Source of the DNA: a virus
Lineage: Duplodnaviria; Heunggongvirae; Uroviricota; Caudoviricetes
DNA length: 39,625 nucleotides
IMG/VR virus record: IMGVR_UViG_2545824712_000011
Strand: one strand, 5' to 3'
The notes under the pieces are model-generated. The model had not been told where the DNA came from. It saw only the letters and a program-made list of their open reading frames with translations, and did no database searches. The first letter of the stretch is position 1, and every line of letters starts with the position of its first letter. The position numbers were made by a program, and so were the translations under genes. Of the stretch, positions 29,779 through 37,630 are shown piece after piece.

Positions 29779-30078
29779 ATGACAGTAGTCATTACATATC
29801 TGGCTGACGATAACGCCAGAAATCGCCGCAGAGCACGCAGACAGGCTCAACGTGAACAGGCAATGCAAGAGCAGCGACTGGCGCGAAAAATTGCGCTAAA
29901 GCTCTCTGGTTGCGTCAGAGCAGATAAAGCAGCATCACTCGGAAGCCTTCGCTGCAAGAAGGCAGAAGAAATCGAGCGTAAACAGAATCGTATTTACTAC
30001 CGCAAGCCACGCAGTGAAATGGGTGTGACTTGTGTTGGTCGCCAGAAAATGAAATTAGGCAGCAAACCACTTATTTGA
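29779..30078 (+). CDS. Antiterminator N-like protein (arginine-rich motif)
   Basis: N-terminal ARM DNARNRRRARRQAQREQ; located downstream of PL/nutL. Confidence 0.75.
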   Translation: MTVVITYLADDNARNRRRARRQAQREQAMQEQRLARKIALKLSGCVRADKAASLGSLRCKKAEEIERKQNRIYYRKPRSEMGVTCVGRQKMKLGSKPLI

Positions 30079-30086
30079 GGTGAGAT

Positions 30087-30557
30087 ATGACAAAATCATG
30101 GAGCGTACCTTTTCCTGAATCAGAAACTGAACATGATGGAATGCCTGTTTTCTGGAGATTCCAAGCGACAGTTGAAGAAGATGGAATCAAAATATTCGCA
30201 CTTCAATATATAGCTTTTCATCAGACAGAGCATTATGCATGGTTGGTTCCTGCGCATTGGATTGTTAATTTTAAACCAGCACCAAATCAGTGGTTACAGG
30301 AATGGAAACAAAGGAGAAATAGATATGCAATTAAGAAAGTAGCAAAAAATGCAGAAAGATCTTTTGCATTCCCAACGAAGAAACTTGCCATTGAGAGTTT
30401 ATTGCGCCGGAAGAAATACCATTTAATGAGAATCAAACAAGATTTGGCTGTTGTATCAACTCTTGTTGATGGGATGAAGAATATTGATACATCAACACCA
30501 GATATTGAATATAACTTTGGGCACAACCAAGAAACAGAAAATTGGGTATTTTATTAG
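30087..30557 (+). CDS. Hypothetical protein, AT-rich moron downstream of N
   Basis: 156-aa ORF, start 9 nt after N stop with GAGG upstream; low G+C; no recognisable motif. Confidence 0.55.
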   Translation: MTKSWSVPFPESETEHDGMPVFWRFQATVEEDGIKIFALQYIAFHQTEHYAWLVPAHWIVNFKPAPNQWLQEWKQRRNRYAIKKVAKNAERSFAFPTKKLAIESLLRRKKYHLMRIKQDLAVVSTLVDGMKNIDTSTPDIEYNFGHNQETENWVFY

Positions 30558-30922: not shown

Positions 30923-31077
30923 GTTTTACAGATAACTGGTCAGACGAAGAATTCATTCGTCAGATGAAAGATTTAATCGGTAACGAAGGAGATATTCATG
31001 TCACTTGCAACCACAGTGAAGGAGAGCAAGTTACAGAGACGCATGTACACGCAGAAAGCTCTCTGGTATCGCCATAA
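30919..31077 (+). CDS. Small hypothetical protein
   Basis: 52-aa ORF, ATG overlapping cIII-like stop (ATGA). Confidence 0.4.
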   Translation: MSFTDNWSDEEFIRQMKDLIGNEGDIHVTCNHSEGEQVTETHVHAESSLVSP

Positions 31078-31176
31078 TGGTGACCGCGAAGGAATGCGGG
31101 TATGCCTTAATTTGTCCCGAGTCGAAGTATTAAATCAGCGTTATTTCCTTGGGCCATGTCCATTCTGAGGTGAATT

Positions 31177-31884
31177 ATGGATTTGAATAAATTCGATGAG
31201 CCATTCAGCCCTGAAGATATCGAATGGCGAATACAGCAAAGCGGTAAAACACGCGATGGCAAGGTGTGGGCTATGGTGCTGGCTTATGTAACGAACCGGG
31301 CAATCATGAAACGCCTGGACGATGTTTGCGGCAAAGCAGGATGGCGCAATGAATACCGCGATATTCCCAACAACGGCGGCGTTGAATGCGGCATATCAAT
31401 AAAGATTGATTCCGAATGGGTAACCAAATGGGATGCTGCTGAAAACACGCAGGTAGAAGCCGTCAAAGGTGGTCGTTCCGGTGCAATGAAGCGCGCTGCC
31501 GTTCAGTGGGGAATCGGTCGGTATCTGTATAACCTTGAGGAAGGTTTCGCACAAACATCTCTCGATAAAAAGCAGGGGTGGCACAGGGCAAAACTGAAGG
31601 ATGGAACAGGATTTTACTGGCTCCCTCCATCGCTGCCGGGATGGGCAATCCCAGCATCATATAACAAACCATCACCAGAAAATACCAACCAGAAATCTCC
31701 ATCGGTTGACTGCGAACAAATCCTGAAAGACTTCAGCGATTATGCATCAACAGAAACTGACAAGAAAAAACTCATCGAGCGTTATCAGCGTGACTGGCAA
31801 TTAATGGCTGGCAACGAGGAGGCGCAGGCTAAATGCGTTCAGGTAATGAACATCAGAGTTAACGAACTAAAACAGGCGGCATAA
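31177..31884 (+). CDS. Single-strand annealing protein: Rad52-like N-terminal domain fused to Erf-type C-terminal domain
   Basis: WGIGRYLY Rad52-type motif; C-terminus ...ETDKKKLIERYQRDWQLMAGNEEAQAKCVQVMNIRVNELKQAA matches P22 Erf C-terminus as recalled. Confidence 0.75.
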   Translation: MDLNKFDEPFSPEDIEWRIQQSGKTRDGKVWAMVLAYVTNRAIMKRLDDVCGKAGWRNEYRDIPNNGGVECGISIKIDSEWVTKWDAAENTQVEAVKGGRSGAMKRAAVQWGIGRYLYNLEEGFAQTSLDKKQGWHRAKLKDGTGFYWLPPSLPGWAIPASYNKPSPENTNQKSPSVDCEQILKDFSDYASTETDKKKLIERYQRDWQLMAGNEEAQAKCVQVMNIRVNELKQAA

Positions 31885-32391
31885 ATGGCAAGCAGAGGCG
31901 TAAATAAGGTGATTATCCTTGGTCGGGTAGGACAAGACCCGGAAGTTCGATACTCACCATCAGGTACAGCGTTCGCTAACCTGACAATAGCCACGTCAGA
32001 ACAATGGCGAGATAAAAATACTGGCGAGCAAAAGGAATTGACTGAATGGCATCGTGTTGCTGTATCCGGGAAACTGGCTGAGGTCGTGGGGCAGTATGTG
32101 AAAAAAGGTGATCAGATTTATTTCGAGGGAATGCTGAGAACCAGAAAGTGGAAAGACCAGTCAGGGCAAGACCGTTACACAACCGAGGTTCATGTCGGAA
32201 TTAATGGCGTGATGCAAATGCTTGGCGGCATTGGCGACAGCAAACAACAAGCAGCCAGCAGGCAATCACAGAAGCCACAGCAGCAATCATCACCAGCACA
32301 ACACAACGAACCTCCGATGGATTTTGACGACGATATACCCTTTGCACCAGTAACTCTCCCCTTCCCTCGTCACGCTATTCACGCAATTTAA
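31885..32391 (+). CDS. ssb: Single-stranded DNA-binding protein with 15-residue extension past the DDDIPF tip
   Basis: [23 protein letters not shown]...[13 protein letters not shown]... OB fold as E. coli SSB; [11 protein letters not shown] followed by [15 protein letters not shown]. Confidence 0.85.
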
Positions 32392-32404: not shown

Positions 32405-32701
32405 ATGCCAGCGCCTCTGTATGGTGCGGATGACCCGCGCAACTGCTCCGGTAGCTCCAAGGCGGAGGTGCTGGAAAATATCAAAAACATTTTCGACACG
32501 TTTATTGATCTGCCACCAGAAACAAAAGCAGAACGGATGTACCGACGCGATATACAACTCGCGTTAAAAGATGAGAAGGACCGAACAAACGAAACAGCAA
32601 TGCGACCTTTGCGAAAAGCGACAATAGACAAATTCCCTGAATATATCGACCCGCGTCTGCGTAATTACCGCTCACGCTATGGCGCTATCAGTAATGACTA
32701 A
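32405..32701 (+). CDS. Hypothetical protein (ea region)
   Basis: 98-aa ORF following ssb. Confidence 0.45.
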
Positions 32702-36179: not shown

Positions 36180-36303
36180 TCCCGCCGTACACTACCGTCT
36201 ACCATTGTCTATAAACCCCATGTAACCATATAAAAATAAAGAGATTTTATTCTCATGACGTCCATTGCCGTCTATTGAAATCAAGTAAATCTATGGGGCA
36301 TAA

Positions 36304-36343
36304 TTGGGGGCATTGCTGGTTCGATTGTAAATGTGCCCCCAAT
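36304..36343 (+). promoter_or_regulatory. Stem-loop (9-bp stem TTGGGGGCA/TGCCCCCAA) ending 1 nt before int ATG
   Basis: Read directly; 21-nt loop contains GGTTCGATT. Confidence 0.6.
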
Positions 36344-37630
36344 ATGTCCAGAAATACCCTCAACAAATTAACAGACCGTCAGTGCAAAGCAGCTAAGCCA
36401 CGAGACAAAACTTATAAATTGTCTGATGGTGGTGGTCTTTATCTTGAAGTATCCCAGACCGGGTCGAAGTATTGGCGAATGAAGTATCGCCGCCCATCAG
36501 ATAAGAAAGAAGACAGACTTGCTTTTGGTGTATATCCAACCATTAGCTTACAAGACGCCAGAGAAAAACGAGACAACGCCAAAAAGTTGTTAGTCAAGGG
36601 GATAGATCCCAAAGCAGAGCAAAGAGCAGCAAAAGCAGAAGAAAAAGGTGCATTCACTTTTGAGACAATAGGACGTCAATGGGTTGAAAGCCACCAGATG
36701 TGGAACGAAGCCCACCGAAAACGCGTACTTAGAAGCCTTGAAATGTATATTTTCCCTCACATTGGCACTTCGGATATTCGCAAACTGGAGGCGATGACAA
36801 TTTTACCTTTGTTTAAGAAGGTAGATGACGCCGGGAAACACGATACAGCCAACCGACTTAAACAACGAGTTAAGGACATCATACATAGCGCCCGTCTGAG
36901 CGGCATTAAGACAGAAATCATCACGAATGATCTCGATGTCCGGTTAATGCAATATGAAACTAAGCATCATGCCGCACTACATCCCAGAGATTTACCAGAC
37001 TTTTTCACTCGATTGGGCAGCTTTAAAGGTAATCCTCTTACCCGCCTTGCCATTGAGCTAACCATGTTGACCTTTGTTCGTTCAAGCGAGTTAAGGTTTG
37101 CCCGTTGGAAAGAGTTTGACCTTGATCGGGCTGAGTGGATTATCCCTAAAAAAAGAGAGCCTATCGATGGTGTGAGGTTTTCCACCCGTGGCACAAAGAC
37201 GGGAAAAGACGAACATATCGTGCTTCTTAGCCGTCAGGCTGTTTCTATTGTAAAGCAGTTGAGAGAACTAAGCGGAAGCTACGATGTTGTGTTTCCGAAT
37301 GAAAGAAACACCAAAGGCGTGATGAGTGAAAACACGGTAAACAAGGCATTACGCTTAATGGGCTATAACACGCAAGAAGACGTAACTGGACATGGATTCC
37401 GTGCCACAGCCTGTAGTTCCCTGATGGAGTCCGGTTTGTGGCAGGAGGACGCAGTAGAGCGCCAGATGAGCCACAAAGAATATAAAGACGTTAAAAGAGC
37501 CTACAAGCACAAGGCTGATTACTTAGAAGAGCGCAAACTAATGCTTCAATGGTGGGCAGATTATCTGGACGCCAATCGAGAAATACACATAAGCCCTTAC
37601 GAGTTCGGAAGGAGAACACGCCGTGACTAA
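36344..37630 (+). CDS. int: Tyrosine integrase, P4 family
   Basis: N-terminus MSRNTLNKLTDRQCKAAKPRDKTYKLSDGGGLYLEV... and C-terminal HGFRAT...VKRAYKHKADYLEERKLMLQWWADYLD typical of P4-like integrases. Confidence 0.9.
   Translation: MSRNTLNKLTDRQCKAAKPRDKTYKLSDGGGLYLEVSQTGSKYWRMKYRRPSDKKEDRLAFGVYPTISLQDAREKRDNAKKLLVKGIDPKAEQRAAKAEEKGAFTFETIGRQWVESHQMWNEAHRKRVLRSLEMYIFPHIGTSDIRKLEAMTILPLFKKVDDAGKHDTANRLKQRVKDIIHSARLSGIKTEIITNDLDVRLMQYETKHHAALHPRDLPDFFTRLGSFKGNPLTRLAIELTMLTFVRSSELRFARWKEFDLDRAEWIIPKKREPIDGVRFSTRGTKTGKDEHIVLLSRQAVSIVKQLRELSGSYDVVFPNERNTKGVMSENTVNKALRLMGYNTQEDVTGHGFRATACSSLMESGLWQEDAVERQMSHKEYKDVKRAYKHKADYLEERKLMLQWWADYLDANREIHISPYEFGRRTRRD

Follow-up and report, generated by a model that had tools for sequence, protein, structure and literature searches.

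Ring assembly, binding of single-stranded DNA (ssDNA), and strand annealing have been shown experimentally for Sak of Lactococcus phage ul36, for Erf of phage P22, and for RAD52. The ERF and Rad52/Sak families are now regarded as branches of one Rad52 superfamily (PMC2896510, PMC11783212), and the C-terminal regions of such strand-annealing proteins (SSAPs) are considered dispensable for annealing and required for interactions with partners (PMC11783212). λ Redβ, as described in the literature, has an analogous layout, in which an N-terminal annealing domain of the Rad52 superfamily is followed by a small helical C-terminal domain that is needed in vivo for binding its partners, Exo and SSB (PMC11783212, PMC12315714). 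A two-domain structure of P22 Erf was established by Poteete and colleagues, as far as their work is related in the genome papers of epsilon34 (2008; PMC2629481) and phage L (2020; PMC8022706), and both papers explicitly speak of an Erf “domain swap.” Cryo-EM of the ring formed by the Erf-like protein Gp77 places a flexible C-terminal domain of three helices at the periphery (PMC13017515).

The gene analyzed here lies in a window of 39,625 nucleotides, the whole stretch of DNA under study (IMG/VR virus record IMGVR_UViG_2545824712_000011). It encodes the same protein as the mosaic “Erf” of several described phages (Sf6 gp28; ORF252 of mEp235, mEpX2, HK75, and IME10; ES18 gp49; the ST64T protein; epsilon34 gp36; and the phage L protein), with length, core, linker, tail, and place upstream of ssb and abc2 all as they are there. 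The mosaic of a Rad52 core and an Erf tail is real; it is also already known, is widespread in P22-like phages, and is not specific to the window.

Relatives and layout of the locus

Over its full length, the protein was 99.6% identical to its counterparts in mEp235 and mEpX2, 99.1% to those in IME10 and HK75, about 92% to those in ES18, epsilon34, and ST64T, and about 89 to 94% to those of many other Salmonella P22-like phages; Sf6 gp28 had the same length, an identical tail, and a core that was 99.4% identical. A tblastn search with the SSAP across 50,697 phage records recovered 97 that share the architecture at ≥80% coverage, and a collection of 5.8 billion proteins held 5,593 homologues, with full-length matches down to 57% identity across Enterobacterales (Cronobacter, Citrobacter, Klebsiella, Hafnia, Pantoea, Erwinia, and Atlantibacter). 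The annotation of the mEp235 record already reads “Rad52/22 family.” Another record, OR850339.1 (“Staphylococcus phage SA 1298 Kay,” 1,698 bp), contains a copy of the SSAP gene at 91% identity and is most likely a mislabeled or contaminant sequence. The SSAP gene and its surroundings comprise the following features:

29779-30078: N-like antiterminator
30087-30557: ORF without assigned function
30998..31168, + strand: small ORF of 56 aa, identical to Sf6 gp29 (phrog_1723), occupying the position of P22 arf
31167..31170, + strand: GAGG, a Shine-Dalgarno-like site read from the sequence, 6 nt 5' of the SSAP ATG
31177..31884, + strand: SSAP gene, a complete ORF with ATG, 235 codons, and a TAA stop
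31177..31656, + strand: Rad52/Sak-type annealing core, residues 1-160 (Pfam, identity to ul36 Sak, AlphaFold2 model)
31507..31530, + strand: WGIGRYLY motif, residues 111-118, invariant among 43 full-length homologues
31654..31713, + strand: variable linker, residues 160-179, the join of the two ancestries (AlphaFold2, comparison of homologues, homology boundaries)
31714..31881, + strand: P22 Erf-type C-terminal domain, residues 180-235, a three-helix bundle (DNA and amino acid identity, AlphaFold2)
31885..32391, + strand: phage SSB, 168 aa (Pfam SSB, E 1.6e-36)
32405..32701, + strand: Abc2 anti-RecBCD protein, 98 aa (Pfam PF11043, E 3.3e-35; phrog_656)
36275-37630: integrase, with several function-unassigned ORFs between abc2 and it

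This neighborhood is the early-left operon of a P22-like/lambdoid temperate phage. The TAA of the SSAP gene directly abuts the ATG of ssb, and the Shine-Dalgarno-like site overlaps the stop codon of the small ORF upstream. By megablast, the right half of the window was matched in patches, at about 97% identity, by IME10, Sf6, Huey, HK106, and mEpX2, which is the usual lambdoid mosaic picture; compared with Sf6, the window lacks gp26 and has an ssb whose 3' third is different. A P22-type recombination module was recognizable in that abc2 lies near the SSAP gene and no nuclease family was found among the neighboring ORFs tested. In P22, however, arf lies upstream and abc1 downstream of erf, whereas in the window these positions are taken by the gp29-like ORF and ssb, and tblastn with P22 Arf and Abc1 gave no match anywhere in the window. 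The small upstream ORF was rejected as a candidate Arf because the two fall in different PHROGs (phrog_1723 for the ORF, phrog_2445 for Arf). Present in most of 80 related IMG/VR loci and belonging to a PHROG that bears the label “recombinase,” this ORF may encode an accessory recombination factor.

Two ancestries within one gene

A sequence-only reading had placed a Rad52/Sak-type WGIGRYLY motif in the N-terminal two-thirds of the protein, and both the family and the extent proved accurate. Pfam PF04098 (Rad52_Rad22) matched residues 4-136, spanning profile positions 7-153 of 153, at E 5e-26 and 91.9 bits against a curated cutoff of 20.3; no other Pfam family matched the protein, and ERF (PF04404) gave no match even at E ≤ 10. 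Residues 6-159 were 59% identical to residues 11-164 of ul36 Sak, also named ORF252, the prototype among phage homologues of Rad52 (155 residues; E 1e-66), which has WGVGRYLY where the window protein has WGIGRYLY and, as here, is followed immediately by ssb. The similarity to Sak stops at residue 159; the C-terminal ~88 residues of Sak are unrelated to the Erf-type tail, and its host is a Firmicute. Profile match, similarity to a characterized member, and a predicted Rad52-type fold all placed the core in the Rad52/Sak family.

Such identity (31192-31653 against positions 2001-2462 of the ul36 locus L009) is unusually high for phages of different bacterial phyla, which suggests strong constraint or a relatively recent transfer of the core. 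A separate observation concerns the end of the core, residues 129-161 (31561-31659; LDKKQGWHRAKLKDGTGFYWLPPSLPGWAIP), which bears a weak resemblance to WW domains: phmmer matched it to the Prp40 WW domain at E 0.27, Pfam gave no WW match, the spacing W135...W156-x-x-P159 is WW-like, and AlphaFold2 predicted β-strands at 136-139 and 145-149. This segment is conserved in ul36 Sak.

The AlphaFold2 model of the whole protein (43-sequence alignment; mean pLDDT 82.9) showed a Rad52-like core of β-sheet and helices (pLDDT mostly >85), disorder at residues 164-175 (pLDDT <50), and tail helices at residues 179-192, 196-209, and 214-234 (pLDDT ~90); modeled alone, the tail formed a three-helix bundle (pLDDT 95.9). 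Since the disordered stretch lies between two confident, independently folding domains, the join sits in a flexible linker, a region that differs in length and sequence among homologues. The model agrees with the two-domain structure related for P22 Erf. When the whole model was compared with the PDB by Foldseek, the best 16 matches were all yeast Mgm101 or human RAD52, with probabilities of 0.6-1.0 over the 16 (0.9-1.0 at the top, with E values of ~2e-3 to 5e-2), modest TM-scores (0.25-0.45), and sequence identities of 13-18%. In structure, the predicted core is thus closest to Mgm101 and the N-terminal domain of RAD52, which belong to the same Pfam family; the eukaryotic C-terminal regions (RPA and RAD51 binding) are unrelated.

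The tail told of a different ancestry. The claim that the last about 60 residues match the C terminus of P22 Erf was borne out, length included: BLASTP against P22 Erf (reference taken from BK000583) aligned only residues 157-235, to Erf 134-205 (63% identity over 79 aa; E 3e-30), tblastn across 2.3 Gb of phage DNA returned the same tail match (E 8e-24), and 42 of the last 56 residues were identical. In DNA, the homology to P22 erf was limited to 31714-31884 (79%), that is, to the last 56 codons and the stop. It ends exactly at the SSAP stop codon, after which abc1 follows in P22 and ssb in the window, and it resumes at abc2 (71% identity in DNA, 61% in protein). The two proteins share this C-terminal domain, the early-left operon position, and the association with abc2. 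The core of P22 Erf, by contrast, is ERF (PF04404 at residues 5-146, E 4.6e-46; phrog_155) and has no detectable sequence similarity to the window core, so that the window protein carries a P22 Erf-type C-terminal domain and lacks an ERF-family core. Both the Rad52/Sak and the Erf matches are far beyond chance.

One profile, phrog_1097, labeled “Erf-like,” does cover the SSAP over its full length, but it is really a Sak family: ul36 Sak matches its positions 2-238, and of Erf only the last ~58 residues match it. The “Erf-like” label on this PHROG and on many records is owed to the tail alone. Uniform full-length similarity to either family, which would have spoken against a chimera, was not seen; the domain-wise alignment led from the core to Rad52_Rad22/Sak and from the tail to P22 Erf, and this split ancestry supports the earlier proposal of a domain shuffle between two annealing families. 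The event is a core replacement inside one superfamily, not a fusion of unrelated folds.

The third tail helix (31822-31881; QAKCVQVMNIRVNELKQAA) also resembles the receptor-binding coiled-coil helix of colicins E2, E3, and E9 (QAKAVQVYNSRKSELDAA), which hmmsearch with the tail profile against PDB sequences matched at E 0.019; this is probably a chance likeness between amphipathic helices.

Diversity and exchange of the tail

The same C-terminal domain was found on 7 ERF-core (PF04404) proteins; phages with tail-bearing ERF cores include Salmonella Oslo and ABTNLsp11242, Shigella Sf101, Klebsiella GZ7, Morganella IME1369_01, and Erwinia Eho49. Its presence on such divergent ERF-core proteins indicates that enterobacterial ERF proteins are its native setting. 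When the last 56 residues of 43 Rad52-core and these 7 ERF-core proteins were clustered, tail cluster A united the window protein and its Salmonella and E. coli Rad52-core relatives with P22 Erf, and one Salmonella Rad52-core protein (P0026) had a tail identical to that of P22 at 54 of 56 positions. In tail cluster C, 14 Rad52-core proteins grouped with the GZ7 (Klebsiella) and Eho49 (Erwinia) ERF proteins; of 61 tail positions in a protein from an Erwinia genome (P0106), 45 were identical to the tail of Erwinia phage Eho49. Because clusters A and C mix both cores, at least two tail subtypes are each common to the ERF and Rad52 families.

Within the Rad52-core family, mean identity was 78% for cores and 45% for tails, core and tail identities were weakly correlated (Spearman 0.30), and certain pairs had cores 93-94% identical and tails 35% identical. 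The occurrence of tail subtypes on both core types, along with the faster divergence of the tail, implies repeated exchange. What is new here is that the tail occurs on both core types in at least two subtypes and diverges much faster than the core. Host labels, which cover part of the sequences, are suggestive of a tail subtype that tracks host genus rather than core type. Recombination within the linker or close to it very probably gave rise to the mosaic, with tail and core both swapped repeatedly among enterobacterial phages, a judgment that applies jointly to this history and to the function proposed below.

Searches with the tail alone were of narrower use: the collection of 5.8 billion proteins gave 19 proteins, almost all of them short fragments and unfit for a survey of architectures, and phmmer against 1.84 billion representatives gave 14 matches, a small number because a database of that size calls for a query longer than 61 residues.

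Function and candidate partners of the tail

With high confidence, the protein serves a temperate phage of the P22-like group (Sf6/HK75-type) as its strand-annealing recombinase and is a member of the mosaic “Erf” family. By analogy with the characterized proteins, its Rad52/Sak core would form rings, bind ssDNA, and anneal complementary strands. Since none of the module ORFs tested was recognized as an exonuclease of the exo or recE type, resection would fall to the RecBCD of the host, reprogrammed by Abc2 as in the model of Murphy for P22, and the ssDNA would be coated by phage or host SSB. The recombinase would then circularize the terminally redundant injected genome and support recombination-dependent growth, as erf does in P22. 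The C-terminal domain is, again by analogy, most likely a flexibly tethered docking module, dispensable for annealing and needed in vivo; our best guess for its partner is a host factor common to Enterobacterales, for example SSB. The sequence-only reading had likewise suggested that the Erf tail may retain an interaction with a partner.

The constancy of the surrounding module was examined in the 80 IMG/VR loci, which were found with a single tail query, all have a 100% identical tail, and therefore inform on constancy rather than diversity. Their gene order was Sak core, tail, SSB, (gp26), and Abc2, with an SSB gene downstream of the SSAP in all 80 and Abc2 in 79. Eleven of these loci (e.g., L011) have, directly after the SSAP, an ORF of 155 aa with a helix-turn-helix-like C terminus, and SSB further downstream; the ORF looks like an inserted gene, possibly for a homing endonuclease.

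Docking of the annealing ring onto SSB-coated ssDNA, whether the SSB is that of the host or that of the downstream phage gene, would give the tail a role like that of the λ Redβ C-terminal domain, and we regard this tentatively as one possible form of the docking. The ssb gene directly abuts the SSAP gene in the window, in a Pantoea genome (L092), in a metagenome contig (L094), and in IME1369_01 and ABTNLsp11242, and of the candidate partners host SSB alone occurs in every host. The tail, at the sensitivity of tblastn, was found almost only in Enterobacterales phages, the Sak core carries other C termini in Lactococcus and Vibrio phages, and binding of Redβ to SSB is reported (Zakharova et al. 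2024, as cited in PMC12315714). Yet neither in sequence nor in specific fold was the tail found to resemble the C-terminal domain of Redβ: hhalign of that domain against the tail profile detected no homology (probability 0.2%), and PDB sequence and fold searches with the tail returned generic helical bundles only. A phage SSB is moreover absent beside the tails of P22, GZ7, Eho49, an Erwinia chromosome (L091), and a second metagenome contig (L096). Covariation of the tail with the C-terminal type of the phage SSB was considered and rejected, the identical tail lying beside both IPF-ending SSBs and SSBs extended by 15 residues, and the rapid divergence of the tails is a poor fit to simple docking on the highly conserved SSB tip.

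The SSB of the window merits description in its own right. Its canonical acidic tip with IPF is followed by 15 more residues (32344-32388), and the IPF motif is therefore internal; SSB partners normally dock on the free C terminus of this motif. In the 80 related loci, approximately 48 SSBs were extended (168 or 171 aa) and approximately 20 ended in ...IPF, and a similar segment stands at the end of gp26, a separate protein in Sf6. A 28-aa query made of the tip and the extension found 98 phage records at ≥80% coverage, with matches that include “hypothetical proteins” of ~145-kb Klebsiella, Serratia, and Cronobacter myoviruses as well as SSBs of Vibrio phages. The extension may mask or alter the SSB tip, or may be a portable mimic of such a tip.

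It is unlikely, though well worth weighing, that the tail instead serves specifically as a handle for RecBCD, which after modification by Abc2 would load the annealing protein, rather than RecA, on resected DNA. Abc2 has been proposed, in a putative published model, to reprogram RecBCD so that it recruits and loads Erf (PMC9836394). The gene lies two genes downstream of the SSAP gene in the window and is near-constant in the identical-tail loci; it accompanies the tail-bearing ERF cores of Oslo, Sf101, and P22 and, as a distant homologue, that of ABTNLsp11242, and tail and Abc2 were both kept across a complete replacement of the core. Against such a handle, Abc2 was undetected in the flanks examined of seven tail-bearing SSAPs, those of GZ7, IME1369_01, Eho49, L091, L092, L094, and L096. 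The ORFs of ~100 aa near the tail-bearing SSAPs of Erwinia, Pantoea, and metagenome origin, when compared with Abc2, gave nothing in Pfam and an hhalign probability of 0.45%; with these downstream ORFs not detectably Abc2, its candidacy as the obligatory partner of the tail was rejected. Phage HK620, too, presumably pairs abc2 with Sak4, which we take to be a RecA-like annealing protein without an Erf-type tail, and this counts against the handle.

The other P22 neighbor, Abc1 (L001 2716-3000), has a 37%-identical homologue in Klebsiella phage GZ7 (L003 3008-3310) that matches Pfam HTH_23 at E 3.5e-6, and the PHROG of P22 Abc1 is that of D5-like transcriptional regulators, which hints at a DNA-binding protein.

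A tail with no external partner, modulating its own protein through ring stacking, stability, or auto-inhibition of DNA binding, strikes us as quite improbable. The near-invariant tail residues (L183, F186, L199, Y203, W207, and L231) are mostly hydrophobic core, rapid surface divergence is what would be expected if no conserved partner had to be met, and the C-terminal domains of Gp77 contribute extra ring-like density atop the assembly (PMC13017515). The general view of SSAP C-terminal regions as mediators of partner interactions (PMC11783212) points the other way. So does the retention of the tail across complete replacement by another core family with a different ring geometry, which makes a role tuned to one particular core hard to reconcile with the data.

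Finally, that there is no chimera at all, only a divergent full-length Erf or an assembly artifact, has the “Erf-like” labels of many records and of PHROG 1097 over the full length in its favor but is hardly credible and was refuted by the domain-wise comparisons, given the Rad52_Rad22 score set against the lack of any PF04404 match, a core so close to ul36 Sak and placed in a different PHROG from the P22 Erf core, and the same architecture in the 97 phage records, the 80 IMG/VR loci, and thousands of database proteins.

A tail that is exchanged repeatedly raises a broader prospect, which we put forward with due reserve as a possibility: the tail may be a portable adaptor cassette, traded time and again between ERF-core and Rad52-core annealases of enterobacterial phages in step with host genus. 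In that case it would connect any annealing ring to a single host-specific partner (SSB, RecBCD-Abc2, or another), and the tail, not the core, would set which hosts a phage recombinase works in. The gene itself, near-identical to those of sequenced phages, is a textbook case of within-gene mosaicism in lambdoid phages, and its practical lesson is that the protein, though labeled “Erf-like,” is by its core a Rad52/Sak-type annealase. The identity of the tail partner would fill a gap in the Abc2/RecBCD/Erf model of P22; and if the tail sets compatibility with host or partner, it could be grafted onto other annealases, moving recombineering systems between hosts.
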